Part shown: positions 6,001-45,134 of the stretch, in pieces | How positions within the stretch are numbered: the stretch's first letter is position 1 | Layout of the letters: the number at the start of each line of letters is the position of its first letter | IMG/VR virus record: IMGVR_UViG_3300035670_000089 | Span: 33,571 to 97,570 of that record | Strand: one strand, 5' to 3' | Origin: a virus | DNA: 64,000 bases | Program-made: the position numbers and the translations under genes | The notes under the pieces: model-generated | What the model saw: only the letters and a program-made list of their open reading frames with translations | Database searches by the model: none | What the model was told of the DNA's origin: nothing

Positions 6001-9000
6001 CCGCTTCCTCGTTTAACTTTTGGGTATTCTCTGCAGAAGTCTCCGGGGGTTGTGGTTTAGGTGTGGGTTTAGGTGTAGGTTTAGCTGGCTCTACCGGTTC
6101 CGCTGTTTCAACCGGGGTCTTCGTTTCTTCAGGAGATTGAGGTGTAGCGCCCATCTCTTCCTTAATATTTGTCTTAGCTTTCTCCTGAGTTTGCTTTAGG
6201 TCTCTCTCTAACTTCCTATTCCAGAGCGACCGCCCTAACTTATACGCACCGTAAAGTCCACCCGCCAGAAGAGCGTGTCCCCCAATGGTGGCGTATAACT
6301 CATCATGATTCTTCTCTTTATTAAATAAGTAAGCTTCCTGCGAGATAACAGAACCTAAATAGTTACCGATATACCCGCCGATAATACCGCCGACTATCGC
6401 TCCCGGAAATCCTCCAAGTAATCCTCCAATGACCGCCCCCACACCCGCGCCCACAAGCGCACCGGTTAAACCACCTTTACTAGCGGAGTCAGCGTATTTG
6501 ACGTACTCCGCCTGCGAAGTGATATTAGCGCGCTGTAATCGCTGCCAATATCTCTGTCCTTGACCAAACCCACCAGATACTTCAGACGCAAAGGAACCAA
6601 TTATGTTTAGCGCGGTACCTATACGGGGTACCACACTTAACCCTGTAAATATCCCCGTGACGTTACGTTTGTTGATGTCTACAATTTCTTGGCGGGGACT
6701 GGTTTTGTAATGTCGAAGGTTTTCCGCGGCTTGAGAATTACTGTGCAGAGTAAATGGAGCGGCTACAACCGCAATCGCGGCGTCAAAAGCTCTACTCGTT
6801 ACAATTCTGAATATCTGTCCGCTTAAGGAACGCCCCGCTACTTCTTTAGTAGCTTCCCTACTCGCCGCTCGGTACAGTTCCTTCTGGAACATTCTATTCC
6901 GTGCTGCCTTTGAAAAAGCTTGTCTACCCCCACCGCGCGCCATTCTCTCTGCGGTAAGTCTCGCGGCTTCTCTATACACCCGCGCCTGAGTACTTCGTAC
7001 CGAGGATTTTACGCCCTCTTCGACTAAATCGTCTCCAGCGCTAGCTACACCTCTATAAAGAGAAGAGTACCGAGTACCTTTTAAACGGGAGGGACTAACT
7101 CTTGAAGCGTAAAGCCTGGGTAGTCTTGATGTTTTTGCCGACGCCGGACTAAACCTTAAAGAATCTCCCTTTAAGAAAGGAGACCGCATAAATAAGTCTC
7201 TGGTCTTATTCACTTCGTTAAGATATCTCCAACCAGAGACCGCCCCGGTAGTTACACCGTAACCTATACCCGCGACAGCTAACCCGAAGACTCCAAACTC
7301 CACAACGTCTCTAGTTGTAACTTGGGACTCATCCGCCGTTCCTTCATCCGCATAGGCTGAGGGGGGCATCAGCATATCCCCTATACCCGGTAAAGCAGAT
7401 ATAGTTTTACCTATTAAAGACCGACGTCGGGTACCCCGCTCGGAATACATTCTATCCCCCAACCAATTCCCTACGAATTCCCCAACACTATTTTGGAGAA
7501 TCATCGTTGTGGAGATCTGTTTAGCCCAACTAAGGTTTATCTTACCTCGGGTGACTCCACTGAGAATCAGACTACCTAGGTTTACAGATGCACCTATAGC
7601 GGCGCCCGCTACATCTCTACTCGCGGCTCTATATTCTTGAATATCACTATAGCCGCCCAGACTATTAAGTCTCCACATAGAAAAAGACATTAGAGCGGTG
7701 TCTACCCCTGTGGACATCAATGCATTTATAGTTCCTCTACCTAAACTCCTAAGAGGTCTAAAAGCAGAACTGTCATACGCTTTCTTAGCCGCCATTGGTA
7801 GCGACTCGGATAAGAAGGTTGTAAGTCCATTCCTAAAAGGTTGACTCCCGAATAAGAATTCGTGTACCCCTCCCCATATTTTATGGAATAGAGATTGTTG
7901 TGGCCGAGGGGGTAACGGTGTAGTCGGGGAGGTTGGTGGAATATTAGGCGCAGAACCTCTTCTAAATGTAAAGTTCGCAAGAGAACTTACAAGACCGCCG
8001 ATTCCTTTACTAATACCCTTCAGTATTGGTAAGCCCACAGTCCGGAGTCCAAAAGGATCGAATAAGTCTTCCACTTCACGGAAGATAATATTGTTCTGCC
8101 GAACCGGAACATAATTCGGATTAAGGATATTCCGAGCGTCTTGTACAATTCCCCTAAAGGAGAATTTAAAACCATACCGTATAGCGTCGGTGGCTCCATA
8201 AGCTCCTCCACCGATAAACTGCCACTTTCTTCTTTCGTCTCTATACTCTTCAGTGGTTTGGTCTTCGTCTTTATGTAGGAAATTATATAAGAATCCTGTT
8301 AAGAAATACCCTTTCAGAAAACCCGTACCCGCACCCAACGCCATACGAGAGGACGCTCTACCAATACGAACACGCTCCGGGGCTAAGTCTTTAAATGTGC
8401 GCCCAGCCTCTCTGGCCTTAGCAGCCTCTCGGGCATAGTTCATCATTCTTCTTTCATACCCGCGGCGAATACCGCCCTTGATGCCCATATACGTCACCGA
8501 TGTAGCACCCGAAACCCCCAAGGATAATTTTGTATAATCCTCGTCGGACATACCGGTGGCGGACGTAACTAAAGACCTCCCGTACTGCATTAAGCCAAAG
8601 GTAGCCCCTCCGACTAATGCTCCTTTGCCTAAATATTCAAATACAAAAGGAAGAGCAGATCTGCCTATCCCTTTATATTTCAGCATGTCATTTAACTGAG
8701 CATTATTTATATTGACCAACTCTTCCGCAGTCAATCCACTAAGTTCCTCAAACTTCTTAATGTTTTGGTTAGCGAAATAAGTGTCTACTACATCTAACCC
8801 AGACTTAATCTGTCTGGTTAACGGACCCATAAACGAATTGGCAAAACTAGCCGCCCCAGACATTCCCCAAATAAAGGGGTCAATCTGTCGATACTTACGT
8901 CTCTCCCTATCCGATAGAGAGTTACTAAATATAGCGGTGAGAACCCCGTAAGTAATCAGTCCGGTTAGGGCTCCCCGGGATACTCTATTATTCCCAATGC

Positions 9001-12000
9001 CCGACAGCACTCCTTTAAAGGCATCTCCAATTCTTTCGCCGGTGGATACAATAGCCCCACCCATTCGCATAATGCCAGAGGTGTCTATAGATGCCCCTTT
9101 AAAGGGGGCAGTAATATTACCGTATATAGTGGACGCTGTGTCTCTAAGAACATTAGGAGTCTCTCGAATAGCGTAAGCCGTGTTATCCGCCACCTTCGCT
9201 AGAGTATAGGATGTAGAACCTACACTCTCCTGCGGTATTTTATTAGTTACATACGAACCAACCACCGCCGTCCCTATAGAGCCAAACGGAGTTTCGTTTA
9301 TACGTTGTCGGTAGGGTCTACCATGCAACATATCTCCTAATTGATTCCGTCTCAATGCGGCTAAGGTTAACAGTTGAGACATATACGGCTTAGGTCCAAA
9401 AGGAGCTAAGACCCGGAATGCATATCCTTTTGTATCGAAATAACGCTGGTAGGTTGTGTATTCGCCAAAGCCATTAATCCTCCCCTGTAGGAATGGATTA
9501 ACTAGTTCATCGTCGAGGCCCGCTTGTGTAGAAGCTGCGCGGGCATAACGTTCTCTATTCTTCTCGGCGATATAATCGCTGATGTCTCTCTCATTCGTCT
9601 CCCAAGGTACGGGACCTTGGAAGGTTATCAACCCTTTACTATACTTCGTGTCTCTATTCCACCAAGCTTCGCTGGTCTCAGGAAGTACAGCGTTCGTTAT
9701 ATAGGCAAGAGGAGTCCCCTCAAACTTACGGTACAAAGAGGTAATAGTAGGGTCTAGCGCTCTAGCAGGTAATCCTAAGACTTGCAACGTCTCATTCAAC
9801 ACCGGGACTCCGACTAAAGTATTAATAATCGGAGCCAGGACACGGTTGGCGAGAGGTTTAAATATATGTCGGTCTAAATGCCGAACGCCCTTAGTAATAC
9901 TATCTGTGATTCTTCCTTCATTAAACTTCTGGTCAAGGAAATAACCACCGAGGATAGCCCCCGTTGCTACCCAACCAGCAGGGGTAAACATACTCTTCGC
10001 GGCGAAGGAGAGTAATGTCATACCTATACCGGTCTCAATTATCATATTCGCCGCGGCTTCCGACGCCCTCATTCTCTCCATCGGAGATTTCTCCGACGCG
10101 GCCTGAGTAACCATACTGTAGACTGGGTAGAACGTAGCGACCTCCATCGCTTTACCCAGGAGTCCAAAGGCTCCGGTAGCGGCTTCTCGAAGACTACCGA
10201 GATACCCTACTCTAGCGACTCTATCTGTAGTACTCATACTAAATAGAGAAGCATTCCGATTATTTAAAAGCCGCCGTGCAATTTCCCGTTGTTCCCTCGG
10301 GGATATTTTCTTACGGGGAAGACGTTGAGGTACATGAGACGCCCCCTCGTCTTGTATCGCGGAATTTAGGATAGCATCCTGTATATCCAGAATCCGCTCT
10401 GCAATATTCTGAATAATGTTGTACTTATTCTGCGGCGTAACATGCGTGGAGTTTATCTCGTCAGTAATAAGAGAGCTAAGTTTCCCAAACTTATCCTCAA
10501 TAAGATCGTCCACTGCTGCATCTATACCTGTAGCAGACGAACTGTCAATAAAGAATTCTAGGAGGCGTTTCGTAGAACCGTCGTTAACGTCGATAGAAGC
10601 ATCCAGGAGTATATCTCGTAGCTCCCGCTTAATCCTACCGGTGAGGTCTTCAACCTCTTTTCCAATATCGACTCCCGGTTTTTTCTTACTCTCGACGAGA
10701 GTATCTATCTGTTTTACAAACTCACTCTCTCTATCAGGGAGGTCCTCGACATAAGAGGACAACCTACTGTTTAAATCTACAAACTGATCTTGTATCTTAC
10801 GAGCGTTTTGAGTACTAACCGTTAAAGTTTCGCTACCTAACCGCAATCTACGCGCACCTTTAGTTTGGCGTTGCCGACCCTGAACTTGGAAGTTATCCCC
10901 AGAACTTACAATAGTAAAGTTAGAGTTTTGTATACTCGCAATCCGTTCAGCGACTTTCTCCTCCATACCTCGAATCGTTCCACCTTCCCCAAAAGCGGCA
11001 AACGCGGACACCGTTGTCATCAATGAGAATGTCGTCGCGGCGGTAACCGCAGTAAATGTCAAAGCGGTGGTCAAGGTCATAATTACCGTAGACCCTACAA
11101 AAGGCACCGTCTTCTGTTCTACTTCCCCCTTAGAGTTTGTCGAACTATACTCCCTCAGTTTGGGGAAGTAAGCCATCTTTAAGGGCTCAATGAAATAACT
11201 GAAGATATTTCCCCGTTGGGCTTGTTTACGAGATTCCATAAGACCTGCGAAGTCCATCGTAGGTTTCTCAAAACTCCCTGTGGTTAAGAACCTTCCCCCC
11301 ACATTAAAGGTGTTAAGAAATAAATCCAGTACTCCAGGTTGTTGAGATTCCGCGCCGGGTACATATTGAAATATTCCATCCAGGTCGTACTTAGTCCAAT
11401 CCACACTCTTCAGACCTTCGACGAGAACATCCCCCACCTTAAGGTTTTCGATACGCCCCGAGCGCGCCATCTCTAAGAAGTAGTCTATAAACAGTTCAGA
11501 ACCCCGCTGTCTAGCGGCATGTTGGGCGTAGAATTCTCTAACCTCTGCCGCCATGGCTAATTCTCTACTAGAGCCACCTAAAGCTTGGACTTCGCTAGCG
11601 GTAGTTTTACCGTATAAACGAGATGGAGTTTTCTTAGGAGTAGCTCCTCGAATCTTTGCCACCGCTTTATCGGAGTATTCTCCTTTAGTAGAGAGGATAG
11701 CAGAAAGGACTTTAGCGTCATCAGCGGAGATGGACTCCATGTTCATGTATACCTTGGACTGGGATATATCCGCCCCCGGAGATTGAGCCTGTAGATACGC
11801 ACGCCAGGTCTCAGTTCCTTCCGACATACCCCAAGCACCGAAGATATTCGCAAAAGGATTAGGGTTGTCTTTATACATCCCCGTCATCTTCCGAATATCG
11901 CCGAACAACCCCAAGGTAAATAAATTAAGAAGATTAGGGATAAAGTTCTCTTTATTCGCGGGTGCGAATGGACTAGAGTACCCTAGAGCTCTTCTAGCCG

Positions 12001-15000
12001 CACTCATTCGTTTGAAGTCTGAAGAACTTTCAGTACCACTAAAGACTTTAAGAGGTCCCTCAAAGAATCCTCTTACGAATCTATTCCCTTCTCCTTCTGC
12101 TCTACTGTCGGAGAACATGGTGTTATAAACGAGTCCGGCTAGACCAACTAGAGCCCCAGCTCTCACTATAGACATCCCTGCCAAACGCATTCTTATAGCG
12201 TTAGAGCGGACTAGTTTAGGTTCCGCATATCTCAAAACATCGTCTACCTGTTGGAATAACTCCTTACCTTTCCCGGGTAGTATTTTACCGGCTTCAACTT
12301 CATTAAAAGTCCCGCGGGCATATCTATTTACCAACTCAGGCCATTTCTCCGCATCTAAGTCTCTGAGTACTGAGTCTCCATGTGCCGCCTTCGCCAGTAG
12401 ATTTAGAGCTTCATCCTGATAAGTAGCGTACATTTGACGCTGTGTCCCTCTTAAACTAAAGGGACTTATTCCGTATGAAGGGGGTGTATCTACAAAAGAT
12501 TTAGCGGAATCAAAGACCCGGCCTGAGTAAAGAGCAGTAGAGATAACGGTAGTCAAACCTACCGCCGCACCGATTCTATACTCATTCGCTTGACGTAAAG
12601 CCTCGTAGGGATTCGCCGTAGAGCCGACATTACTCAACCCCGCCGCTTCGTAATAAGAACCTAAAGAACTGTATTCTGAACCTTTACCGACAGCCCCAAA
12701 CCCTATAGCCGCTGCGAGTAGTAGTGGAGTCATTTTGCGGAAACTAGGTCCTAAGAACCGAGCGTCCTTAACGTCGTAGAATCGAGTTGATGTCCCAATA
12801 GAGCGCATCAATAGATTCGGCATAACAGTTTGAGGAACTTGAGACCACCGCGCTAGTTTCTCGTACTGCTCAACTCCTAATTGGAGGTAACCTAGTGCGC
12901 TTCTTGCGCCTTCTAGTTCCTTCTTAACCGAAGGAATACTACTTAAATGTGCCCAAGCACCACTTTGCTGTACACCCTGCCATATATTCCCGGCTACTCC
13001 GGCTGCTCCAACAAAGACTAGAGAACGAGTGAAGTACGAGTCTTTATCAAAGACCGGGGTAAAACTATCAAATAGATTACCTTGTAGATATGACTCTCTA
13101 GACTCGCGGGCTAACTCCTTAGTATCTCTAGTATCCTCTATACCCCCGGGATAGAGTCTCTGATACCGTTTCTCCGCCACCTGTTCCGCTCGAGTAGTTA
13201 CAGAATTAATTCGTAAAGATAGAGGATAACTAGGAATAGAACCCATCCCTAAAATAGGTAGGAACTGGAAGCCGGCGCTGAAAGCGTATTTATTCCCCTG
13301 AGGGTCTGTTTTACTCACCAGGGTTATTTGAAAGATTGGGTTAGGTTGTTGATGGGCCCAGGTATACCCAACACGTTCTTTACCTTTATCCGCCTGTAAC
13401 GCCCGGTCCGCCAACAGCCCTAACAGCGCAATATTAGCTAAACCACTCTTAGGTATATAACGAGTATTGAGAATATCTTGGTCTTCAACGTCTTCCCCCG
13501 TACGCTCTTTAGCTAATTTTTTATATTTATCCACAGTGCGGCGGATAGAAGAGGACATAGTGGTGGAGAATACAATATCCTCATCGGTCTTCAATCCTCC
13601 GTCATCCCCGTAGTCTTTCTTGAACACATTAGCAAGAGCCGCGGCGGTATTAAAACCACCTTGAAGGACAAACAAGGAAGCAATAGCTCCCACGGTGGCC
13701 ATACCAAAGCTAAAGCGAGTAACATTGCGCCCCTTCGTAAAGCGAGTGTTTATACTCTCTAACTGCTGCACTACAGCTTTATTCGATTCATCATTAAATA
13801 ACTTCTTAAACTCAGCGTCACTACGAGCAAAGGTAGATAGCCTGTCGTCTATCCGTAAAGAATAGAACATCTTACCCGAGGCTACACCAGCACCTAACAC
13901 TGTGGGTACTTTTAGCCAATCTGGGACTACCCCGGTGTACTGCACTTGCGAAAAATCAGCACTGCCGTCTTTAACGGTGTCCTTCGCATTTATACCGTAT
14001 AGCATTTGGGATATCAAATCTTGACCCCGGTTCTGCATTAGGTATTTATCTAACACACGGTCTACCGCTAATACAGCACCCACGGAAGCTAAAGCTTTTC
14101 TTCCGATAGCCGCGGCATGTACTGATTTGATGGTGTTACTAAGACCCTTATGTCGATAAGCGGAGAGTTGTTGGTGTCTTGAGAATAGATCGTCGTACTC
14201 AGTCAATACCTGCTGTATTCTATTCAAAGCAGGACTACTCGCGGTATCGTCGGCTAGTTGAGATAATAGATCACTATTACTCATTATCGCGGCGATAGCC
14301 GGTTCTTGATGTCTTAACTGTTTCCCTAAGTGGAGTATTTCGCCAGACTCTTTGAGGGTTTTAACTAAACCGTGCTCGTACATCCGGCGGGCGGTCAACG
14401 TTATATTCGACGATAACTCGATTAGTCCTTGGAAACCCGGGCCCAACGCCCCCTTTAAGGAGAGTACCTGATTGGGTAGAGGACCTTGATTCGCTTCCAC
14501 TAAGTCCGGTGTCCACGTTCCCGTAATCCCTCTAGCTTTTCTTACTCCCGGAAGATAATATATAGGATTGAACGCGATATATCTCGAGATATCATCCAAG
14601 TGCCGCGCGATATCCTCTAAACGTTGTTTCCCGAAGTTCATGGGTTCAATAGAGGAGAAGGTCTCCGACTTATACCTGATATATATAGGTTGAGACAAGA
14701 CTTCTCGGAGGCCTTTTACAGAGTTCTCAAAACTAAGTTGGGTCTCTACATCCCCTACAATCGATATAGACCGTAAGATCGGTTCAATAACATTCTCAAA
14801 GTTACTGTCGTCGAGTAGACGTAGTCTATTTACTACGTTTAAAGAACCGTATTGATTCGGAGCGGGGTCTCTATATAAACCAGACTCTAAGTCCATAACC
14901 CCGTCAGTAACCCCAAAGGTCTGTTTTTTAATGCGGTGGACTTCTTCTGCTATCTCCGTCGTCGCAACATCTAACTCTCCTTTCTTGACGGCATAGTTCC

Positions 15001-17347
15001 CTATACGATCTATTTCCCTCCGGAAAGTCTCCACACCCTCATCGGCGGGGTCTCCAGATTCCATTAAATTCTTTACAAACTGCAACGCAGTTTTATTATC
15101 CGAGGCATCGATAAACTCCTTAACTGCCCCGGCATCATTCATCTTACCGAGGATGGAGTATTCGAGCATAGCGTCAATTACGTTAGACCCGATTAAACCC
15201 TTGGCCGTAAATTTATCTGCAACAGCATTAAGAGAGTAGAACAAATCGCGGTGTTGCATCGGGAGTTGTCTTGCTCTAGCCCAACCAAAGAAACCCTTGT
15301 TAGTGGACGAGGACATAACTCTCTCCATACCGGCAGTCTCTAACTCCGCTTTAAAGATTGAGAGAGAGTGACTAAATCCAAAGTAGAAGAGTAAGGCGTT
15401 AGTAGTAGCACTAGCCGTAGAGTAGGAGGACGATATGAGAGTCTCGAAGAATCCCCTCTTCTCTTTACTCTCGTATTGAGATTTATGTAATCCTTGAGGG
15501 TCGTCCTCCAAAGCTTTACCTTTTTCCGCAGCGTAAAGCTGCTTCATCGTGTAATACCCTGTCAAATAATCTAAGGTACGCCCAAAGAGAGTTAGACCTG
15601 TACCCACCAAGCCGCGGTCTTTCTCGTAAGCCTCGGGGAATTTCTCGTTTATAAGTGCGCCCCATCCTCGTAGAGTACCCGGGCTAAGTTGTCTATCTAG
15701 AGAAGCATAAAGGGCATAGCGGAATTTATCCCCAGGCTCAGTGACATCATCTTTAGTTTTACCGGTAAGGCTATATATATAATCTTGGTATGGAGTGGGG
15801 CGTTCTCCTTTAAACATCGAGAAGAACCTATCGTCTATAGATGTAGGAAGATAAATCGTCCCGGTGGTCTCTCTTGATATTGTGTCCCCCATATCGGATT
15901 TATCGGTATACTTAGGCCTAAATAATGTGGAGAACAGTCCTCTATCATACGCAGTGGTTTTTGAGGATAGTTGTCGCCCAGAGAACAGTGGGAAGTTCCT
16001 CTCGTTAAGTTCCTTATTCTTAGTATTTAAATCAGGGTCAGGAGTATCCGTAGGCAATAAGGTCTTAGTTATACCTTGCGCTTGCCACCTCTCAATTTCT
16101 TTAATACCAGCTTTCGAGATATTAGGGTCGCGTATAACCACCCCAATCTCGGTCACAAAGTTATTACTACTTTTACTGAAGTTGTGGGAAGTGATATAGG
16201 ACCAGACATCGCTAAATATAGATTTAGCGTGAAGCATGACGTTAGCCTGCTCATCGGTTAACCTCACTTCTATCTTCGGACTTGAGTTCACCAAAGACAT
16301 TAGTAAGTCCGATTGTATCTCTGGACTAGTAGCGGCGGTTTTCCCCGCTGGATTATTAGACACAATTACTATCTTATTTATATCCGGGTCTTTACTCTTA
16401 GCAACCACCTCTTTAAATAACTCTTTATCGGTAGCCGCGAATAGAGTCATATATAAGTTACCTTTGGCAGACTGCACTAGCTCTTTATGTCTCTGCTGCG
16501 ATTCTCCACCTTTACCGCCAATAATTACATTAGGAAGATTCGGCGGAGTCTCCTTAGGGTCTTGAGCCGATTTGTTTATATACTGTATAGCCTGCTTTAT
16601 CTGCTTAACGACTGCATTATCTTCTATAACAGCGGAGAAGTTCAACTGTTTCGTCGTATTACTTTTTGTTTCCTGGGCTTCACCTAAGTTAGCAGTGGAT
16701 ATTAAGGCGACTTCATCAGAACGAGAGGTAGCCGCCGCTTTAGCGTGTCCGTGAGTATTGTCACCCTGAGTTCTACTCTCATAAGTTTTTCCCGCGTATA
16801 CACCCCTTATATTAGACCGTTCGGTTATCCTACCGCTAAGCATCCGACCTAAAGTAGGGGTATCCATAATTGCTAAAGACGCCGCAGTGGCAGCAGCGGC
16901 TCCCGCTAGTAGACCCGCTGCCCGAGCTACTCTATTTTTACCTAAGTTATACCCAACTACAGCACCGCCTGCAGCCGCTAAAACAGTAGGGACATAATTA
17001 TCATTAAGGGGAGTAACATCCGAGTAGACGTTGAGTTTACCTTTTAGGCCGTAGTCCTCTATATTAGCGCCCAAACTAACCGACATAAAGTTGCCGCTCT
17101 TTATATTTTCGGGAGAAGGGTCTTCAGCCAAGGAGTTTAATCTACGGTAAAGTCTATCCTCAAGACGTCGACTCTGCGTCGACATACTATAGTACGAACC
17201 GATTAAGCGGTCTTTCTTGTTATGCACTTTATCTAAGAAAGAAGAATAACCCTCTTCAGTCTTAGAACCAGAATAGAGAGTTACCTCCGACAATCCGGAG
17301 TAGGTAATACCTTCTTCAGTTCTGTTTACCTTGGTGCCCAAAACCAT
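1..17347 (-). CDS. Giant multidomain virion protein (tape-measure/ejection-like), >=5782 aa, 3' end beyond the window: tandem PLD, hydrophobic helices, HExxH peptidase, lysozyme, M23, M23-like, RlpA-like and L,D-transpeptidase-like domains
   Basis: ATG at 17347 follows AGGGG just after the stop of the upstream gene (MVLGTKVNRTEEG...). Manual translation of about 16100-17347, 4150-4750 and most of 1-2530 stays open in one frame. It is probably absent from the ORF track only because no stop is reached in the window. Motifs: HAK/ISTANL, HAKSIFSD/TSHNFS, HEQAH, AVGRYQFIPSTL/EWAS, HRGVD/HLHFE, ASYYG/RVNDNGP/FDLS, AVSG/PLPDGSY. Confidence 0.88.
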   Translation of the reverse strand, partial: MVLGTKVNRTEEGITYSGLSEVTLYSGSKTEEGYSSFLDKVHNKKDRLIGSYYSMSTQSRRLEDRLYRRLNSLAEDPSPENIKSGNFMSVSLGANIEDYGLKGKLNVYSDVTPLNDNYVPTVLAAAGGAVVGYNLGKNRVARAAGLLAGAAAATAASLAIMDTPTLGRMLSGRITERSNIRGVYAGKTYESRTQGDNTHGHAKAAATSRSDEVALISTANLGEAQETKSNTTKQLNFSAVIEDNAVVKQIKQAIQYINKSAQDPKETPPNLPNVIIGGKGGESQQRHKELVQSAKGNLYMTLFAATDKELFKEVVAKSKDPDINKIVIVSNNPAGKTAATSPEIQSDLLMSLVNSSPKIEVRLTDEQANVMLHAKSIFSDVWSYITSHNFSKSSNNFVTEIGVVIRDPNISKAGIKEIERWQAQGITKTLLPTDTPDPDLNTKNKELNERNFPLFSGRQLSSKTTAYDRGLFSTLFRPKYTDKSDMGDTISRETTGTIYLPTSIDDRFFSMFKGERPTPYQDYIYSLTGKTKDDVTEPGDKFRYALYASLDRQLSPGTLRGWGALINEKFPEAYEKDRGLVGTGLTLFGRTLDYLTGYYTMKQLYAAEKGKALEDDPQGLHKSQYESKEKRGFFETLISSSYSTASATTNALLFYFGFSHSLSIFKAELETAGMERVMSSSTNKGFFGWARARQLPMQHRDLFYSLNAVADKFTAKGLIGSNVIDAMLEYSILGKMNDAGAVKEFIDASDNKTALQFVKNLMESGDPADEGVETFRREIDRIGNYAVKKGELDVATTEIAEEVHRIKKQTFGVTDGVMDLESGLYRDPAPNQYGSLNVVNRLRLLDDSNFENVIEPILRSISIVGDVETQLSFENSVKGLREVLSQPIYIRYKSETFSSIEPMNFGKQRLEDIARHLDDISRYIAFNPIYYLPGVRKARGITGTWTPDLVEANQGPLPNQVLSLKGALGPGFQGLIELSSNITLTARRMYEHGLVKTLKESGEILHLGKQLRHQEPAIAAIMSNSDLLSQLADDTASSPALNRIQQVLTEYDDLFSRHQQLSAYRHKGLSNTIKSVHAAAIGRKALASVGAVLAVDRVLDKYLMQNRGQDLISQMLYGINAKDTVKDGSADFSQVQYTGVVPDWLKVPTVLGAGVASGKMFYSLRIDDRLSTFARSDAEFKKLFNDESNKAVVQQLESINTRFTKGRNVTRFSFGMATVGAIASLFVLQGGFNTAAALANVFKKDYGDDGGLKTDEDIVFSTTMSSSIRRTVDKYKKLAKERTGEDVEDQDILNTRYIPKSGLANIALLGLLADRALQADKGKERVGYTWAHQQPNPIFQITLVSKTDPQGNKYAFSAGFQFLPILGMGSIPSYPLSLRINSVTTRAEQVAEKRYQRLYPGGIEDTRDTKELARESRESYLQGNLFDSFTPVFDKDSYFTRSLVFVGAAGVAGNIWQGVQQSGAWAHLSSIPSVKKELEGARSALGYLQLGVEQYEKLARWSQVPQTVMPNLLMRSIGTSTRFYDVKDARFLGPSFRKMTPLLLAAAIGFGAVGKGSEYSSLGSYYEAAGLSNVGSTANPYEALRQANEYRIGAAVGLTTVISTALYSGRVFDSAKSFVDTPPSYGISPFSLRGTQRQMYATYQDEALNLLAKAAHGDSVLRDLDAEKWPELVNRYARGTFNEVEAGKILPGKGKELFQQVDDVLRYAEPKLVRSNAIRMRLAGMSIVRAGALVGLAGLVYNTMFSDSRAEGEGNRFVRGFFEGPLKVFSGTESSSDFKRMSAARRALGYSSPFAPANKENFIPNLLNLFTLGLFGDIRKMTGMYKDNPNPFANIFGAWGMSEGTETWRAYLQAQSPGADISQSKVYMNMESISADDAKVLSAILSTKGEYSDKAVAKIRGATPKKTPSRLYGKTTASEVQALGGSSRELAMAAEVREFYAQHAARQRGSELFIDYFLEMARSGRIENLKVGDVLVEGLKSVDWTKYDLDGIFQYVPGAESQQPGVLDLFLNTFNVGGRFLTTGSFEKPTMDFAGLMESRKQAQRGNIFSYFIEPLKMAYFPKLREYSSTNSKGEVEQKTVPFVGSTVIMTLTTALTFTAVTAATTFSLMTTVSAFAAFGEGGTIRGMEEKVAERIASIQNSNFTIVSSGDNFQVQGRQRQTKGARRLRLGSETLTVSTQNARKIQDQFVDLNSRLSSYVEDLPDRESEFVKQIDTLVESKKKPGVDIGKEVEDLTGRIKRELRDILLDASIDVNDGSTKRLLEFFIDSSSATGIDAAVDDLIEDKFGKLSSLITDEINSTHVTPQNKYNIIQNIAERILDIQDAILNSAIQDEGASHVPQRLPRKKISPREQREIARRLLNNRNASLFSMSTTDRVARVGYLGSLREAATGAFGLLGKAMEVATFYPVYSMVTQAASEKSPMERMRASEAAANMIIETGIGMTLLSFAAKSMFTPAGWVATGAILGGYFLDQKFNEGRITDSITKGVRHLDRHIFKPLANRVLAPIINTLVGVPVLNETLQVLGLPARALDPTITSLYRKFEGTPLAYITNAVLPETSEAWWNRDTKYSKGLITFQGPVPWETNERDISDYIAEKNRERYARAASTQAGLDDELVNPFLQGRINGFGEYTTYQRYFDTKGYAFRVLAPFGPKPYMSQLLTLAALRRNQLGDMLHGRPYRQRINETPFGSIGTAVVGSYVTNKIPQESVGSTSYTLAKVADNTAYAIRETPNVLRDTASTIYGNITAPFKGASIDTSGIMRMGGAIVSTGERIGDAFKGVLSGIGNNRVSRGALTGLITYGVLTAIFSNSLSDRERRKYRQIDPFIWGMSGAASFANSFMGPLTRQIKSGLDVVDTYFANQNIKKFEELSGLTAEELVNINNAQLNDMLKYKGIGRSALPFVFEYLGKGALVGGATFGLMQYGRSLVTSATGMSDEDYTKLSLGVSGATSVTYMGIKGGIRRGYERRMMNYAREAAKAREAGRTFKDLAPERVRIGRASSRMALGAGTGFLKGYFLTGFLYNFLHKDEDQTTEEYRDERRKWQFIGGGAYGATDAIRYGFKFSFRGIVQDARNILNPNYVPVRQNNIIFREVEDLFDPFGLRTVGLPILKGISKGIGGLVSSLANFTFRRGSAPNIPPTSPTTPLPPRPQQSLFHKIWGGVHEFLFGSQPFRNGLTTFLSESLPMAAKKAYDSSAFRPLRSLGRGTINALMSTGVDTALMSFSMWRLNSLGGYSDIQEYRAASRDVAGAAIGASVNLGSLILSGVTRGKINLSWAKQISTTMILQNSVGEFVGNWLGDRMYSERGTRRRSLIGKTISALPGIGDMLMPPSAYADEGTADESQVTTRDVVEFGVFGLAVAGIGYGVTTGAVSGWRYLNEVNKTRDLFMRSPFLKGDSLRFSPASAKTSRLPRLYASRVSPSRLKGTRYSSLYRGVASAGDDLVEEGVKSSVRSTQARVYREAARLTAERMARGGGRQAFSKAARNRMFQKELYRAASREATKEVAGRSLSGQIFRIVTSRAFDAAIAVVAAPFTLHSNSQAAENLRHYKTSPRQEIVDINKRNVTGIFTGLSVVPRIGTALNIIGSFASEVSGGFGQGQRYWQRLQRANITSQAEYVKYADSASKGGLTGALVGAGVGAVIGGLLGGFPGAIVGGIIGGYIGNYLGSVISQEAYLFNKEKNHDELYATIGGHALLAGGLYGAYKLGRSLWNRKLERDLKQTQEKAKTNIKEEMGATPQSPEETKTPVETAEPVEPAKPTPKPTPKPQPPETSAENTQKLNEEAAEERVETAKTILGEPPKPTPKPTPKPTPAPTPKPTPKPTPKPTPKPQTTSSKPSFAPAVLQYRSDQIDKYTSGQYSYEQLTLIEQDLTLRLSKDKRTGRTLSKNERLGIVAERAAVIAAKEQIIPPELKQIEDEAKAKKRQLQNETQQQREAVEAEAARKRAELESKPPTPLTPPTPPTPPTPALSEEEMIEAKYREKQKSSHDKFKDREEEIARKEAELAAKHKELEDLRSGKSPTPTTPTAESPGPVSKPTVESSKPTPPPLPPTKPTPTPPPLPPTKPTPQSKPDAETSKPPSESLRPIDHNLVYAGKAGMLQDLRAGADASRSARIFIESVDDDLLWEDGFDSLREREAKLRQSANETLNTDLVPNTGEVEAKVARELAQADYINERLNALQKSNDIQNLKGEAATQRVDLSNAGVRKQKVGLWDRLWNGPSFYFEERPDMVFRGDSFMQEEEIRFANEQIERMFPHEKAPTLEIVRDPKSTYKGYYDPRRHVVSVNLARGDTSLDILDTLVHEQAHAYNTRYTSKTDFFDSAKEYVSFLKETLLTNKLRSDFIEVSLESKQRRQYVYRGALSSSHHYAVGVLGVQTVEGTNYTRPNQDVVSQINKLAERAETGQLSIEDDRLFRKLTGGFIDELSAYNAAAEVYEEFPVNSVGKGLHTHEAPDKGFEAAYNRMMKAAGFDVQVEMGFKPPQRKKAPGGFVRVQKQSKAAGRRERWSNVRRGTAQGIDIQGLILDTIIDKTKGAADKAVSGVKTVASNLGRGVWEGSGKLETWGSKLDTRFGNVGVGGQAGFFGRFGQGLRAEFSMRGIVEGTFGVGKTDTGKFGLKGKGGAMALLGTGLQLADDILSGKSAGETATNFGMSILGGLAFGAAMAGLGAMAASSAAAIATLGTLGSVALMAYGIYSLTNQALDVGGKAYEKWWLKRKRTAEEQKDWEEQKQMLSMGFGVGTAMYVGSLAVLRSTEAEKRNSFTSRKVVEQSGLRVQTQRGRTLSSVGGGVSGVGSGVTSGALGDKTIYTPANDPALQLLSGVLSKETSLQKETKVKLPSKVNKLEKEEKSSKDKEKVNKAAQDAKKQKSTFAEEYKLYEDKLKGEKGPWRSILDFFGLAWKAVTGASRFIYEAKTKLFKGVADRIAGGMQAAFRAGNDFMGLIQGDVRGTFADILNMISAGEGDWGSFNRGKAGDSMNSSWESVFGKRVQETTLAEIMEAQSKGKVFAVGRYQFIPSTLAGAVKNTGIDPNTPFNEDTQMRLAVSLLQWKRPAIWKYITGQSDDIVAAQKALALEWASIEYGKSGRGAYDSVGGNRHSTSYEKSIEALIATRQRYAESGGNFVFDKGGMWSEASPDGVQVKGATQVKASDINSGYGMRVHPISGKRKMHRGVDVASVGGKGVDGMFISFTKDTVVTKVGYQEGGAGYWAELDAGNGMKFRVMHMRGQAFLKVGSTLKAGSAIGQVGSTGGSTGPHLHFETIINGAHTDSRPYVGFVLLGGKPNVEVKQPQTPPPAPKNTAKGGSQSQRMAEQTSVSTSRGAVGGLVSNGSAYKTPMKTIHGGGGDPYHIDFKIYGGVSDEQRVALMDAVARGYEAEGRRIEFSNRAVGGVVYRSTDSFKEKLRKIRAAQVAHRGHSSRFAMDFYVPIKGKARYTGKAKTSSTDGGANVNYIIPVIPGGYFTVGKQGRSGQQIIGYNAKGEAVYEFFHGAGMQPGTYRFQDAAPASQQSRPKEAFAPNIPVTPIPSPPGKSTPPQSQPKQQKSSGPAWIKTDKRASYYGRGDGFAGKGTATGEKMDPTAMTVAAKLVNGRPMFPYGTMIEIRNDDNGKSVVVRVNDNGPLTPRRMFDLSAGAFEKIAPIEQGEIRNMSYRVLSTPQSKKQKQQRSKPQQPKQQQRTNSRQTSQTQTRRYDQRLDLDTKLFPSLVTLVPTNRKTQHGSPIYSLQMWKNGKLVGAVDAVSGRPEHQRGNRDVAGSHRPLPDGSYTLARTPFRSNEKDVGGLFLPITPNFP
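5150..6090 (-). repeat. Pro/Thr-rich coding tandem repeats (PKPT, TPP) forming linkers in the giant protein
   Basis: 12-nt GGTTTAGGGGTA-type units at about 5865-5960 and 9-nt GGAGTAGGA units at about 5453-5500. More Pro-rich tracts lie at 5150-5300 and 6045-6090. All are in frame with the giant ORF. Confidence 0.85.
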
Positions 17348-18040: not shown

Positions 18041-20989
18041 TCAATATTGGTCAAAGGGATGCACCGCTACTCCCATATCTGAGTTCCCCCAACCGGATTT
18101 AGAGTAATTCGTGCGGACACTCCTTACAAATTCTTTCCTATCTACAGAGAACCCCTCAACAACACTATCCTTATCGTCTCTAAGACTCTTCTTCCCTTTC
18201 TTAAAGGTTAAGGATTGCCCTGATGTAACCGAACTGGACTTCGCAAGTTCATTCCCTATTAACTGCCAAGTCACCGCGGCTATGCAGTCTGCGATATCCT
18301 TACTGTTATGGACGAAAACTCCCGCGCTAAGGGCAAAATTATCCCATTCATCAACTTCTAAATCGTAAACAGGTACGGCAGTCTCCAATATTACGGGTAT
18401 AACAGCCCGTACCTTATGGTTATTTCCCTTTCCTCTATATCTAAAATCTTCCCAACCTTTGTACCCTTGTGAAGCTACACAACGAATTACTGCGTCTTTA
18501 GTGCATTTCAAAGTATTGCATACGTCCATAAGCCGCTTATTACGGTTTTCAAAGGCTTGTACCACTTCCTCAAATGTCACAACACTACGTTGGTTGTCAT
18601 CCTTAAGGCTATAGGCGTCCCCAGCAGTAAATTTGAGATGAAAATATTCTTTCTCGAAACTCTCCCAGGAATCAAATCCGCAATCTCTTAAAAGACGTAT
18701 CACCAAATTCCTCGATAAATCTAAATAAGTCGCGGCCTGATGCGCATTAGAGCACCCTACCTTAAGAGCCTCGTATAAAACCGACGTGTCCACATCTCTT
18801 CTAAAAAGACCTGTTTTCCTCGCTCTCTCTAAATACCACTCGGAAGAGCGGCTTCGCATAGACTCAGATCTTTTTCTTCTTGTAGATTCTTTTTTATTAA
18901 AAGCAATAGTGCCCTCGGAAAGTTTATGTCTATACGTAGGATCTTTTTTGTGAGCCTCAGCCGTATGGTAAGAAGTGTGTTGCGATCTTGGTATGACTTC
19001 TAAATTCTCCGGGCGGTTATCCGTCTTAACGTGATTTTTGTGGTGGACTATCTCACTATCTTCTAGTTCAGGATAACCAAGAGCCATACGATGAGTCCAA
19101 ATAAACTCTCCGATACTTTTGACTTTTTCGTAACCTCCGCCTATAGGCCAGGATAAATGTAAAGGCATAAGTCTAGTAACCCCTGGAATAATATCCGCCG
19201 CCTTTATATAACTACCGGTTCTGGTCATGAAAGGATGATCCGGAGTACACCGAATAACTGCCCCATTATCCAAAACAACATCTACTAACTCTTTAACTTC
19301 TTTAGTCTTACGCCCTCTAGCCAGACCCGGGACAACCGTCCCATCAGGTTTACAACTATAAACCCACACTTCTTTACCTTCTAACTCAGCTATAGTAGGG
19401 CGAGTACCATCTAATAAAGGAATCCGTGTATCCCCCGTGAAACAACCTCCGGGCCTATGGTCGATTTTCACATTCCGGATTAACTCTAAGTTTAGTAGTT
19501 CATCCTTTAGTAGATTCGTCCAAGGGGAGTTCTTCGGTAGATATAATCTATCCTCGTGGAGGAGTTTACGTACAGCGTCATACATCGCCAACTGTTTATT
19601 GTTCGCGAAATGTATAGTCTCCGTAGGTATCCCGCTGGACTTCAACCGCTGCAAAGTCTCCGCAGATTCCTTTTGGTCCGCGGTTACCTTCGATAAGGGC
19701 TGTCTAGCATGTATCTGATAAATACACTGTTGGACGTTCACAATAGATACCGTAGCGCCATCCACAGGTATCCACGCCATAATCCCATCTATAATGACGC
19801 AGTCCTTACCGTCGATATTCTCTAAATGTCCGTAGGCTAAAGCATATGCGTCCCTGGTGATAGCGGGGTCCAAGTGCATAACCGTATACCCGCGATATAC
19901 CGGTAAATCTTCTACATTAAGCCGGATTAATCGGTCTTCTTGTACTGGTAGTTCCGTTACTCTAAGGAGAGACATCTTACGGAATGCTCTCTTAACCTCT
20001 CTCTCTTCTAAGAAGGCGTTCTCGTTTGCCTGGCGGATTCCTTCGTATAACAACTCCGCTTTCTTGCGGTTAGATATATACATAGAATCCACAACTGGAT
20101 TATTGCGACTTGCATGGATTGGGTTTACCATCCAAGACTTCAAGCGGAAGCCAATCCAACCTGAACTCTGAGTAGAATCCTCGTACAGTTTTACAAGGGC
20201 GTCCCCTTCACACCTGGCGGAGGAGATAATAACCCGTTTAGCATCACTCGCAAAAGGTAAGCCCCCCGCGCCTAAATCATCCCAAAGGTTCAGGGCGTTA
20301 GATTCTCCATTCTTATCGTCGAACATCGCCCCTTCATCCAAAATAATCAGGATAGGACTACCCCCTACCTGAGTCTCAGACTTAGAGTTACCGGAGTATA
20401 TATACAACAGCTTCTCGTCATACCGTATCATCTTTTCCTGGGCGTCTATTTTACCGGCATCGATAAGCCGCCTCAAGAAGAAGACATTCTGCATCATCGC
20501 CTTCGCTTGACCGTAAATAGTCTTACTAGCTTGTTCAGCAGAAGGAGCAACGCAGATAATCGAGATTAGAGTCGAAGACGCGATTCCATAATTCAACTGT
20601 GGAGAATCCATCCGCGCCAAGAGTTCAAACTCATAATTAATGATAAGAGACCCCATTAGGGATTTTCCACTACGCCGCCCCGCCTCTAAAACTAAGTTCT
20701 GTCTCTTTATTGGACCGTAATCAAAATCGTAGGTAGTCCTATCCAGGGTCTTCCAGTACTCCAAGATAGAATATTCCTGGTCTGTGAGTTCTACACCGTA
20801 GTAGGTCTTTAAGATAAGACGTTGCTGCGGAGTAAGCTCAATACCCAACGTCTCCTTGTCGACACCCCCGTTGTCGTACCAGTCGATAATGTCGGAGTAC
20901 TCTACTCCACTGGCGAACTTAGACTCTAAATTAGAGACAAACCCGCCAAAGAAATCGCTTACATCAAAAGCCCCTTTAGATATACTCAT
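18041..20989 (-). CDS. terL: Terminase large subunit, intein-containing (about 602 aa after splicing)
   Basis: Adenine-binding LTPQQ, Walker A GRRSGKS, Walker B LIILDE, coupling motif IISS, RNase H-like nuclease motifs HLDPA...DAYA and KDIAD. Confidence 0.95.
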   Translation of the reverse strand: MSISKGAFDVSDFFGGFVSNLESKFASGVEYSDIIDWYDNGGVDKETLGIELTPQQRLILKTYYGVELTDQEYSILEYWKTLDRTTYDFDYGPIKRQNLVLEAGRRSGKSLMGSLIINYEFELLARMDSPQLNYGIASSTLISIICVAPSAEQASKTIYGQAKAMMQNVFFLRRLIDAGKIDAQEKMIRYDEKLLYIYSGNSKSETQVGGSPILIILDEGAMFDDKNGESNALNLWDDLGAGGLPFASDAKRVIISSARCEGDALVKLYEDSTQSSGWIGFRLKSWMVNPIHASRNNPVVDSMYISNRKKAELLYEGIRQANENAFLEEREVKRAFRKMSLLRVTELPVQEDRLIRLNVEDLPVYRGYTVMHLDPAITRDAYALAYGHLENIDGKDCVIIDGIMAWIPVDGATVSIVNVQQCIYQIHARQPLSKVTADQKESAETLQRLKSSGIPTETIHFANNKQLAMYDAVRKLLHEDRLYLPKNSPWTNLLKDELLNLELIRNVKIDHRPGGCFTGDTRIPLLDGTRPTIAELEGKEVWVYSCKPDGTVVPGLARGRKTKEVKELVDVVLDNGAVIRCTPDHPFMTRTGSYIKAADIIPGVTRLMPLHLSWPIGGGYEKVKSIGEFIWTHRMALGYPELEDSEIVHHKNHVKTDNRPENLEVIPRSQHTSYHTAEAHKKDPTYRHKLSEGTIAFNKKESTRRKRSESMRSRSSEWYLERARKTGLFRRDVDTSVLYEALKVGCSNAHQAATYLDLSRNLVIRLLRDCGFDSWESFEKEYFHLKFTAGDAYSLKDDNQRSVVTFEEVVQAFENRNKRLMDVCNTLKCTKDAVIRCVASQGYKGWEDFRYRGKGNNHKVRAVIPVILETAVPVYDLEVDEWDNFALSAGVFVHNSKDIADCIAAVTWQLIGNELAKSSSVTSGQSLTFKKGKKSLRDDKDSVVEGFSVDRKEFVRSVRTNYSKSGWGNSDMGVAVHPFDQY
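18305..19444 (-). mobile_element. Intein (380 aa) carrying an HNH homing endonuclease
   Basis: N-terminal splice G|CFTGDT, block B CTPDHPF, block F VYDLEV...NF, C-terminal VHN|S; internal HRM...VHHKNHVKTDNRPENL...H. Confidence 0.95.
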
Positions 20990-43805: not shown

Positions 43806-45134
43806 CTAGAAAGTACCGTAAGACAGATCCGGTAGGATAGGTAGGGTTTCGTAAAGTTCGTTGGGTTCACATACATCTAACAGAGCAATCCAATAAGGAT
43901 AAACAGGGAAAGGAATAAAGCAATCACCAATCCGCATGAGTGCTCCCGGAGGCGCAGGCAACTTAGGTGCCATATCCGTTTCCATCCACATACCGGGCTT
44001 ACCGTCAGGAGATTCCCCAGAACAGTGGTAAGTGAAGCCTAAAGCAGCAGAAGGATCTGACATAGACTTAGAAGCAACCAGAGCCACTTTATGAGCAGGC
44101 CAGTACACTTCAAGTTTGTTGTCATTGGAAGGATTCCGCCAAATCCCGTCCATAGTAACGATACGAAGACCGGCGATAGAAGTAATCGTCCCGCCAGGAC
44201 CGAAGGTCAGGTATTGAGGTCCAGGCGCAGAACTCATACCGATAGCGGCGTTACCGGCAACCGCACCGGGTAGGTTGTTCACCAACAGTCCAGGAATACC
44301 CTGGAAGGCTTTAATGTATTCATTAGTAGCCATAATCGCCGACAGGAGTTGCGAACTCATCACAATCGTGTCGAACTTGTTCTTGTTGGTGATATAGAGG
44401 TAATCCTGCAGTAAACGCAGACCTCTAATGATATCGGCTTGAGGATACAACCAGTTAACCCCAATACGTCCATCGGTAGAAGTGAAGAAACTAGCTTCAT
44501 TACGACCTTTAGCGGGGGTTAGGTTAACGTTAGCCGTATAGTTACGACCCATGATATTAACCAAACTGCCTTCCGCAACGGTGTCGCTCCAACCTTGATA
44601 GGAGAAGAAGTTGTGCGGGGGGATGTTGGAGTTAACATCAATCGCTACTTTCGTCCGGGGGTCAAAATAACGCCACCCGCCTTGGAGCATTTTGGATTGA
44701 TAAACTTCTCTAACCCGCTTGAGGCGGTTTACAAGTTTCTGTACCCGCTTACTAATCCACTCTTGCGCGGGTTGTTGTTCATTAATGGTGCCGGGGCGGC
44801 GGAGTTGGTTAATGAACATCCGGTCAATACTGTCGTCTTCCCGAAACGTTTGGGGCACGACAGAGAACCGACGGAGACGATCTGGCTCTACGAATTGACC
44901 GTTGGGGATACCTGGTTGAACCGGAGGCGTAATTCCATGACCCTCAATCATCTGTTCGATGATGAGAGTACGCTCGTAGTGCATTTGGGTGGGGAACAGA
45001 AAGTCTAAATTGGTGGATTCCAATTGACTAAAAGAACGAGCCAACATTGTAAGCTGTAAAGAGCCGAATGAAGGATCATCCCCAATATACTCGTACGGAG
45101 TAACCTGAGCTTGAAATTCTTGTGAAATAGGCAT
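43806..45134 (-). CDS. Major capsid protein (HK97 fold, lambda gpE-like family)
   Basis: Follows the protease. LFP...PPVQPG...LVNRLKRVREVYQSKMLQGG and the terminal IPFPVYP resemble the Phage_cap_E family. Confidence 0.85.
   Translation of the reverse strand: MPISQEFQAQVTPYEYIGDDPSFGSLQLTMLARSFSQLESTNLDFLFPTQMHYERTLIIEQMIEGHGITPPVQPGIPNGQFVEPDRLRRFSVVPQTFREDDSIDRMFINQLRRPGTINEQQPAQEWISKRVQKLVNRLKRVREVYQSKMLQGGWRYFDPRTKVAIDVNSNIPPHNFFSYQGWSDTVAEGSLVNIMGRNYTANVNLTPAKGRNEASFFTSTDGRIGVNWLYPQADIIRGLRLLQDYLYITNKNKFDTIVMSSQLLSAIMATNEYIKAFQGIPGLLVNNLPGAVAGNAAIGMSSAPGPQYLTFGPGGTITSIAGLRIVTMDGIWRNPSNDNKLEVYWPAHKVALVASKSMSDPSAALGFTYHCSGESPDGKPGMWMETDMAPKLPAPPGALMRIGDCFIPFPVYPYWIALLDVCEPNELYETLPILPDLSYGTF

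Follow-up and report, generated by a model that had tools for sequence, protein, structure and literature searches.

This uncultured cyanophage-like myovirus encodes two giant proteins, each with a two-domain PLD head that is probably an active enzyme and, from the sequence comparisons, most likely a nuclease; on one of them, giant 1, the head appears to be exchangeable. We give this reading as a whole a probability of about 0.55. The tandem PLD-superfamily module predicted near the N terminus of both proteins is borne out by the Pfam family PLDc_2 in giant 1, and by family conservation and a structural model in giant 2. Enzyme-bearing giant virion proteins are a kind already known.

Genomic setting of the two giants

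The window analyzed is a 64,000-nucleotide stretch of a 97.6-kb record. In the list of open reading frames, the giant 1 gene occupies positions 2–17347 on the minus strand, starting at 17347 with its 3′ end beyond the window; its full length, from the whole record, is 6999 residues. It is the final gene of a minus-strand structural operon. Its protein has M23 and DPBB lytic transglycosylase domains near the C terminus (Pfam) and glycine zippers in the middle, and the body is homologous to giants of five other records (G001, G002, G003, G005 and G009). The M23 domain matches the PHROG of the M23 region of phage P23-45. The giant 2 gene lies on the plus strand at 51825–63068. Its transcription diverges from that of the structural operon, and together with giant 1 it flanks the structural module. 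Read from the TTG at 51825, from which residues are numbered here, giant 2 has 3747 residues, whereas the version in the database begins with ATG 51864 and has 3734. Its homologs are ~25 giants of 3000–5400 residues.

The PLD module of giant 1

The first half-site of giant 1 comprises H201/K203 and S217-T218-x-N220, and the second H373/K375/D380, S387-x-N389 and E400. The motifs and coordinates of the original prediction (H201/K203 and H373/K375/D380) are thus reproduced, and the module is wider than the interval 16130–16800 given there, beginning at about residue 20. The N-terminal part of the divergent domain 1 (17012–17290, minus strand; residues ~20–112) contains the block LYSGS..G..FL....L.GSYYSMS, conserved with FYDSG..FL...FYELS of four relatives; Tyr 25, Gly 33, Phe 37 and Tyr 53 are invariant in the alignment with them. 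The catalytic part (16562–16843, minus strand; residues ~169–262) holds H201, K203, S217/T218, N220, Q234 and N236, and all of these except S217 are invariant in 5/5 giant 1-type sequences. Asn 236 apparently takes the usual position of the Glu in this half-site. Between the two parts, inside domain 1, is a hydrophobic Gly/Ala-rich insertion (16844–17011, minus strand; residues ~113–168) with a hydropathy peak at residues 140–144; at this position the insertions of relatives are also hydrophobic, and longer. Such an insertion could fit a membrane substrate.

Domain 2 (16073–16561, minus strand; residues ~263–425) contains H373, K375, D380, S387, N389 and E400. Pfam assigns residues 289–420 to PLDc_2 (E = 4e-12; 46.5 bits, cut-off 27), as it does the other giant 1-type modules (4/4, 29–47 bits), and matches the first half of neither giant's module. 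The first half of the giant 1 module does align with its own second half in hhalign (P = 5.8e-5). Run against the PDB, the family profile scores best with Nuc (1byr; E = 3.8e-5) and next with the PLD3 exonuclease. A single-sequence model for giant 1 reached a pLDDT of 38 and yielded no fold.

The PLD module of giant 2

In giant 2 the module is preceded by ~240 residues, the first ~100 of which are acidic and of low complexity. Domain 1 with a helical linker (52542–53069, plus strand; residues 240–415) provides H318/K320, S337-T338-Q339-N340, T342 and E352, whereas domain 2 (53082–53894, plus strand; residues 420–690) provides H620/K622, S644-x-N646 and E657 and contains a helical insertion (53403–53624, plus strand; residues ~527–600). 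Of only three HxK in the 3747 residues, two precede an [ST]xN, and these coincide with the PLD sites. Residues 240–700 are conserved among ~25 other giants. Across 29 family sequences of ~25–30% identity, H318, K320, Q339, N340, T342, E352 and H620 are present in 29/29, K622 and N646 in 28/28, and E657 in 26/26. A Pfam search of giant 2 itself gave no hit; members of its type score 18–32 bits with PLDc_2, two of them above the cut-off at domain 2 (L009, 31.8 bits; P0024, 27.4 bits). The family profile finds NucT best in the PDB (E = 0.017), along with BfiI and Zucchini.

An AlphaFold2 model of residues 240–730 has a pLDDT of 82 and a pTM of 0.82. All 21/21 of its VIA matches at Z ≥ 8 belong to the PLD superfamily, led by F13 (17.2), PssA (17.1), PLD4 (17.1) and PLD (16.5). 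Two-domain PLD enzymes align over model residues 1–451+, whereas Nuc, NucT, BfiI and Zucchini match domain 2 (model residues 181–451) at Z = 8.5–10. The top Foldseek hits are Tdp1, PPK, PLD, PssA and PLD3.

Outside the PLD module, giant 2 contains the motif LGDYDGDS (59613–59636, plus strand; residues 2597–2604). LGD[YFN]DGD occurs once per protein in 19/19 full-length members of the family and in ORF80 of phage Ma-LMM01, and all of these proteins fuse a PLD head to the LGDxDGD core. This conserved core is possibly a single-chain two-barrel RNA polymerase.

Relationship and occurrence of the two heads

Judged by profiles and fold, through which alone their kinship is visible, the two heads belong to one superfamily but are distant within it, and they did not arise by recent duplication. 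A direct BLASTP comparison of giant 1 with giant 2 is not significant (E = 0.36), but in hhalign the cognate halves pair best (P = 2e-5 and 4e-4, versus 6e-3 and 2e-2 for crossed halves). The special paralogy of the pair fails, because Nuc or NucT outscores the other giant's family with either family profile: that of giant 1 gives Nuc 25.7 bits and giant 2 modules at most 12 bits, and that of giant 2 gives NucT 16.9 bits and giant 1 modules at most 7.8 bits.

Both PLD-headed giants are found in the same arrangement in four records (G000, G001, G003 and G005), in line with the predicted co-occurrence. However, in giant 1 orthologs of at least two relatives (G002/L043 and L037) a staphylococcal nuclease (SNase) replaces PLD at the same position, with Pfam E-values of 3.4e-15 in G002 and 2.4e-18 in L037. 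The body of the G002 ortholog is 24% identical to giant 1 over 2200 residues (E = 8e-114), and G002 keeps PLD on giant 2. The only PLD giant of Ma-LMM01 is of the giant 2 type, a giant 1-type PLD protein being absent from its genome. In a Microcoleus phage, the module lies ~550–1180 residues inside the protein, away from the terminus.

Proposed function

In the PLD superfamily, two HxK...(S/T)xN...E half-sites form one active site. Each head would accordingly be a single-chain, two-domain phosphodiesterase whose half-sites make up a single active site. Giant 1 would be a virion protein of the tape-measure-like or polyvalent sort: its long body is helical and hydrophobic, cell-wall hydrolases sit at its C terminus, and its head would be a nuclease cassette open to exchange, with PLD in some relatives and SNase in others. 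Giant 2 would represent a wide family of giants joining a PLD head to the LGDxDGD core. A virion role is consistent with giant 1 closing the structural operon and carrying M23 and DPBB domains, and there is a precedent in the P23-45 tape measure, to which an RNA polymerase is fused (10.1101/2022.12.01.518664). Both giants would be carried by the virion and pass into the host upon infection, the C-terminal hydrolases of giant 1 acting first, on the wall, and its N-terminal nuclease reaching the cytoplasm last. Host delivery and substrate are what we infer for both giants, and the word 'ejected' in the original prediction is to be read likewise.

The heads are most likely nucleases because relatives place SNase at the same spot on giant 1, with the caveat that the best structural Z values of giant 2 include the lipid-acting F13, PssA and PLD. 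An alternative is that they are phospholipases, hydrolyzing host membrane lipids to help giant proteins or DNA through the cytoplasmic membrane, much as contractile secretion systems have PLD-type effectors. The matches of giant 2 at Z = 11–17 do include vaccinia F13, phosphatidylserine synthase, and bacterial and plant PLDs; giant 1 has the hydrophobic insertion and a membrane-like body, and its closest Atlas clusters are named 'phospholipase D' (score 0.88, a lead only). However, the exonuclease PLD4 equals the lipid enzymes at Z = 17.1 and PPK reaches 15.8, the high values being largely due to these enzymes being two-domain chains. Sequence profiles favor Nuc, NucT, PLD3, BfiI and Zucchini, and the head is exchanged for SNase, which has no lipid activity. 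We therefore consider lipid hydrolysis unlikely.

It is quite unlikely that the giant 2 head instead processes DNA ends or nicks, readying the entering genome for the putative polymerase-like core and sparing host nucleic acids, as modeled on Tdp1 and the nicking-joining PLD of poxvirus virions. Tdp1 is the best PDB match by Foldseek (E = 2e-4), and the constant fusion of head and core would fit, but Tdp1 lacks the Asn/Glu set of giant 2 and aligns more poorly by VIA (Z = 9.7–10.7), and we know of neither a terminal protein nor special genome ends in these phages. Host transcription is reported to be nearly unchanged during infection by Ma-LMM01, a distant relative, which suits this idea and argues against wholesale destruction of host DNA (PMC5780444). 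Very unlikely is a non-catalytic role, as a packaging or ejection signal or a hetero-oligomerization interface between the giants, which was part of the original prediction. The modules lie near the N termini of co-occurring giants flanking the structural module and cognate halves align best, yet all catalytic residues are strictly invariant at 25–30% overall identity, G002 combines SNase on giant 1 with PLD on giant 2, Ma-LMM01 has a single PLD giant, and the Microcoleus module is not terminal. Of the predicted shared head, a probable catalytic, most likely nucleolytic, function is retained, whereas close paralogy is not; a swappable head is favored over a pairing or packaging device peculiar to PLD because of the SNase exchange, the giant 2 type alone in Ma-LMM01, and the lack of close paralogy.

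Comparison with known systems

The giants share the signature HxK...GSxN(F/W)S...N-x-E with the Nuc/NucT family (Salmonella plasmid Nuc, 1byr; Helicobacter pylori NucT, 6ehi; BfiI; Zucchini), in which both family profiles find their best sequence matches in the PDB. Those enzymes are single-domain proteins that dimerize to build the active site, whereas in the giants a single chain holds two diverged domains, bears large insertions that are helical or hydrophobic, and is fused to proteins of 3700–7000 residues. Giant 2 shares its bilobed tandem layout with two-domain PLD enzymes (the 5′ exonucleases PLD3 and PLD4, F13, PssA, bacterial PLD, PPK C-terminal domains and Tdp1), and both domains align (Z = 13–17 over 260–298 residues), but sequence identity is 10–16%, the fusion partner differs, and the lipid-binding or transmembrane context of F13 or PLD3 is missing.

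Among viral structures, the giant 2 model matches Ma-LMM01 ORF80 best (BAF36171.1; E = 1.6e-7). This giant of 3562 residues is likewise oriented divergently to the structural module; its HxK motifs are at 287 and 566, it contains NLGDFDGDTF at 2537, and the HMM of the giant 2 family does not reach so distant a protein. Its annotation is automatic only (UniProt, 'PLD phosphodiesterase domain-containing protein'), and we found no published analysis of it.

Polyvalent proteins of phages and conjugative elements are injected as one polypeptide that unites numerous enzymatic domains, among them wall hydrolases and host-directed enzymes, and they typically swap domains at fixed positions, as here, although the present giants are far larger; the text of that survey mentions neither PLD nor HKD domains (Iyer et al. 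2017, PMC5512222). P23-45 gp96 is a 5002-residue virion tape measure with an M23 region that delivers its N-terminal enzyme to the host (10.1101/2022.12.01.518664, where PLD goes unmentioned). The enzyme fused to that tape measure is a two-barrel virion RNA polymerase, whereas here a nuclease-type head sits on the tape-measure-like giant and the polymerase-like motif on the second giant.

Genome setting of the two giants

The IMG/VR record is 97,570 bp long and estimated to be 66% complete, and the window is its right-hand 64 kb. PHROG matches identify the virus as a myovirus and place, all on the minus strand, the portal (49062-50528), the major head protein (43806-45134), the tail sheath (36419-39403) and a terminase large subunit with an HNH insert (18041-20989). 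The latter, a protein of 982 aa that sits between giant 1 and the tail genes, matches terminase large subunit families over aa 95-486 and HNH endonuclease families over aa 617-823. Giant 1, the tape-measure-like protein, starts at 17347 (-) as the final gene of the minus-strand structural operon; its 3' end lies beyond the window and its full frame is 6999 aa. Far downstream of its N-terminal head it has Pfam matches to an M23 peptidase, a DPBB lytic transglycosylase and a glycine zipper. Giant 2 (51825-63068, +; 3747 aa) is divergent from the structural module and located at its opposite end, and as a whole protein it has no Pfam or PHROG match. Its start is ambiguous between the TTG at 51825 and an ATG at 51864 (the database version, 3734 aa), and its first ~100 residues (51825-52130, +) are strongly acidic, of low complexity and not conserved among relatives.

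The PLD module of giant 1

Enzymes of the PLD (HKD) superfamily combine two half-sites into one active site and use covalent phospho-histidine catalysis. All motifs quoted for giant 1 in the original prediction were found at the residues assigned to them. The second half of the head is matched by Pfam PLDc_2 over aa 289-420 (E 4e-12, 46.5 bits; cut-off 27) and conforms to the HxK(x)4D(x)5-6(G/T)SxN motif as H373-x-K375-x4-D380-x5-T-S387-x-N389. The other three half-sites, namely the first half of giant 1 and both halves of giant 2, keep the H, K, (S/T) and N, and the Asp at +7 is absent. A Pfam search gave no match to the first half of giant 1 (H201/K203...S217-T218-x-N220), which is conserved in the giant of Microcoleus phage My-WqHQDG and in the giants of three IMG/VR records, and which aligns with its own second half (hhalign P 5.8e-5).

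A five-sequence alignment sets the beginning of domain 1 at ~aa 20, where LYSGS...FL...GSYYSMS corresponds to FYDSG...FL...FYELS of the relatives. Inside this domain is a hydrophobic Gly/Ala-rich insertion (aa ~113-168; 16844-17011, -), evident from the alignment and from hydropathy, that is longer at the same place in the relatives. The interval originally assigned to the module was thus too narrow, its true span being aa ~20-425. The insertion may anchor giant 1 in a membrane or belong to its helical body.

Single-sequence approaches added little: phmmer with the giant 1 module against the PDB returned nothing relevant, an AlphaFold model of aa 141-450 from the single sequence had a pLDDT of 38, and the ESM Atlas gave PLD leads only below threshold. 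The giant 1 PLD module, used by itself to scan viral contigs, produced no matches, and a metagenome scan gave just three further loci. Two giant 1-type N-terminal sequences, L039 and L042, are identical and come from different IMG/VR samples (3300044974 and 3300034023); in both, ~590 aa of extra hydrophobic sequence precedes the PLD module in the open frame.

The PLD module of giant 2 and its family

No PLD model was matched by Pfam on giant 2 alone. Single-sequence phmmer against the PDB found no relevant solved structure for its module and nothing relevant for aa 1101-3100, and the ESM Atlas gave no result for the protein. Exhaustive phmmer with aa 200-1200 collected 26 proteins, mostly giants of 3000-5400 aa, all of which have the module of aa 240-720 in common. 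The family alignment contains 29 sequences at ~25-30% identity, the database giants having entered through a whole-protein alignment. Invariant across the 29 are H318, K320, Q339, N340, T342, E352 and H620, joined by K622 (28/28), N646 (28/28) and E657 (26/26); His, Lys, Asn and Glu are the catalytic set of Nuc-type PLD enzymes. An Asp at +8 is found in 17 of the 29, the giant 2 studied here having Gln628 instead. Pfam PLDc_2 matches the second half of two relatives above its cut-off (L009, 31.8 bits; P0024, 27.4 bits), and further family members score 18-25 bits.

An AlphaFold2 model of the module built from the family alignment reached a pLDDT of 82 and a pTM of 0.82. The top PDB matches in Foldseek were Tdp1, polyphosphate kinase, PLD, PssA and PLD3. 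A second aligner, independent of Foldseek, matched both domains to vaccinia F13 (Z 17.2), PssA (17.1), PLD4 (17.1) and PLD (16.5), and model residues 181-451 to the single-domain enzymes Nuc, NucT, BfiI and Zucchini (Z 8.5-10). All 21 structural matches with Z ≥ 8 belong to the PLD superfamily, with its bilobed two-domain fold. A helical insertion lies inside the second domain (aa ~527-600). Family conservation, the Pfam matches of the relatives and the model together indicate that giant 2 really does have a module of predicted tandem PLD fold. Chance resemblance was considered and rejected on the same three grounds.

Further along the chain, each full-length giant 2-type protein has a single copy of the motif LGD[YFN]DGD(S/T). 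In giant 2 it is encoded at 59613-59636 (+), and it is also found in the database giants P0004-P0028 and at L048:2701-13389:-, the ORF80 locus of Microcystis phage Ma-LMM01. Giant 2 additionally has GLRSSTAKGP at aa 1452. Both motifs would fit giant 2 being a single-chain two-barrel RNA polymerase.

A distant relative in Ma-LMM01

Among viral proteins, the giant 2 model finds its best structural match (E 1.6e-7) in a protein of the cultured phage Ma-LMM01 named 'PLD phosphodiesterase domain-containing protein' in UniProt, an automatic annotation that constitutes a prior label. It is ORF80 (BAF36171.1), 3562 aa, annotated as hypothetical in the genome record (AB231700.1, 57700-68388) and, like giant 2, divergent from the structural module. 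In ORF80 the HxK motifs lie at 287 and 566 and the sequence NLGDFDGDTF at 2537, and two weak colinear BLAST matches connect it to giant 2. It is a distant giant 2-type protein. A search of the Ma-LMM01 genome for a giant 1-type PLD protein found none. The giant that combines PLD with LGDxDGD is therefore more widespread and older than the second PLD giant, which is limited to a subclade. The Ma-LMM01 lysozyme/metalloendopeptidase is a separate gene of 397 aa, ORF95.

Relationship between the two heads

The two heads had been proposed to be paralogous. BLASTP of one N-terminus against the other was not significant (best E 0.36), and profile comparison by hhalign aligned the cognate halves, second with second at P 2e-5 (77% probability, 105 columns) and first with first at P 4e-4, better than the crossed halves (P 6e-3 and 2e-2). 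This is the pattern expected if both heads descend from a PLD that was already tandem. The heads are not each other's nearest relatives, as Nuc and NucT score higher. With the PDB as reference and bit scores compared at equal database size, the giant 1 family HMM scored Nuc (1byr), its closest solved PLD, at 25.7 bits (E 3.8e-5), PLD3 at ~15 and the giant 2 modules at no more than 12.0, and the giant 2 family HMM scored NucT at 16.9 bits (a borderline E of 0.017) and the giant 1 modules at no more than 7.8. Bit scores were used in preference to a tree, in which the alignable core of ~60-100 columns at <30 bits would not resolve clades. The shared SxNFS..S...E.G strings are a general signature of Nuc-type PLDs, NucT reading GSANWSKNAFENNYEV. 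What stands of the proposal is that the heads are related as members of one superfamily and may share an ancient tandem ancestor.

Nuc-like PLD nucleases have a single HKD domain of about 150-200 aa and work as homodimers, whereas both giant modules are tandem in one chain and so fall outside the single-domain family. At most, the giant modules would act like Nuc.

Co-occurrence and exchange of the head

IMG/VR records first found through the giant 2 module were then searched with the giant 1 module. The predicted co-occurrence of both PLD heads in relatives was seen in G001 (197 kb, 94% complete), G003 and G005, as in the present genome; the remaining records are fragments. In the present genome, G003 and G005 the PLD modules lie 34-36 kb apart and flank the structural module. 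In the Microcoleus phage, a giant 1-type module is located ~550-1180 aa into a protein of 4151 aa, and a giant 2-type gene with LGDFDGD is missing its 5' end at the record start. The missing giant 2 PLD was dismissed as evidence, since the gene is cut there.

The exception is G002 (87 kb), whose giant 2 is PLD-headed and cut at the contig end. Its syntenic giant 1 orthologue (5264 aa; body 24% identical over ~2200 aa, E 8e-114) has as its N-terminal head a staphylococcal nuclease domain (Pfam SNase, E 3.4e-15; L030:13387-14286, -) in place of the PLD. Searching with the body of giant 1 revealed a different orthologue with an SNase head (L037:3434-4000, +; Pfam SNase, E 2.4e-18), together with L043, which nearly duplicates the orthologue of G002.

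Function and delivery

Every catalytic residue is strictly conserved, which speaks for the PLD heads being active enzymes. Nucleic acid is a more probable substrate than lipid on two grounds: the profiles of both families prefer Nuc, NucT, PLD3, BfiI and Zucchini, and, as the stronger argument, SNase replaces the PLD in the corresponding place of orthologous giants. The same replacement argues against the suggestion that the PLD module has a packaging or pairing role specific to it. That the heads are phospholipases is a less probable reading, favored by the hydrophobic insertion in giant 1 and by the fact that some structural matches of the giant 2 model are lipid enzymes; it is the profile preferences and the SNase swap that incline us toward a nuclease. 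If the heads are nucleases, massive degradation of host DNA is a poor fit because host transcription is reported to stay almost unchanged during Ma-LMM01 infection (PMC5780444), which leaves room for a more targeted role.

We infer that the giants enter the host as virion-delivered proteins, because giant 1 is the last gene of the structural operon and, like tape measure or ejection proteins, has wall hydrolases at its end; its operon position, M23 and DPBB domains and hydrophobic body provide the context for such delivery. The nuclease reading can be extended to a two-giant, nuclease-armed system for initiating infection, which would typify a clade of freshwater cyanophage-like myoviruses to which Ma-LMM01 belongs, though as a whole we consider this unlikely, at a probability of roughly 15%. 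In the giant 2 family, the PLD head would be functionally coupled to the polymerase-like LGDxDGD core, and once injected it would make the incoming phage genome transcribable by nicking, end-processing or clearing nucleic acid. The warhead against the host or its defenses would be a second nuclease, brought in by giant 1 and interchangeable between PLD and SNase.

Injected phage enzymes govern the first minutes of infection, and few are known beyond model phages. The analysis defines a family of at least about 25 giants, one of them in a cultured Microcystis phage, in which a PLD module with intact catalytic residues is always joined to a conserved polymerase-like core, alongside a second, tape-measure-like giant with an exchangeable nuclease head, PLD or SNase. 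Thousands of 'hypothetical' residues in bloom-relevant cyanophages would thereby receive a putative function. A literature search for PLD heads on such giant proteins found no paper describing them, and PLD goes unmentioned both in the study of the P23-45 tape measure (10.1101/2022.12.01.518664) and in a survey of polyvalent proteins (PMC5512222). For entry into the host, the P23-45 tape measure with its fused RNA polymerase is a precedent (10.1101/2022.12.01.518664), and the architecture described here is a variation on the known theme of giant virion proteins bearing enzymes.
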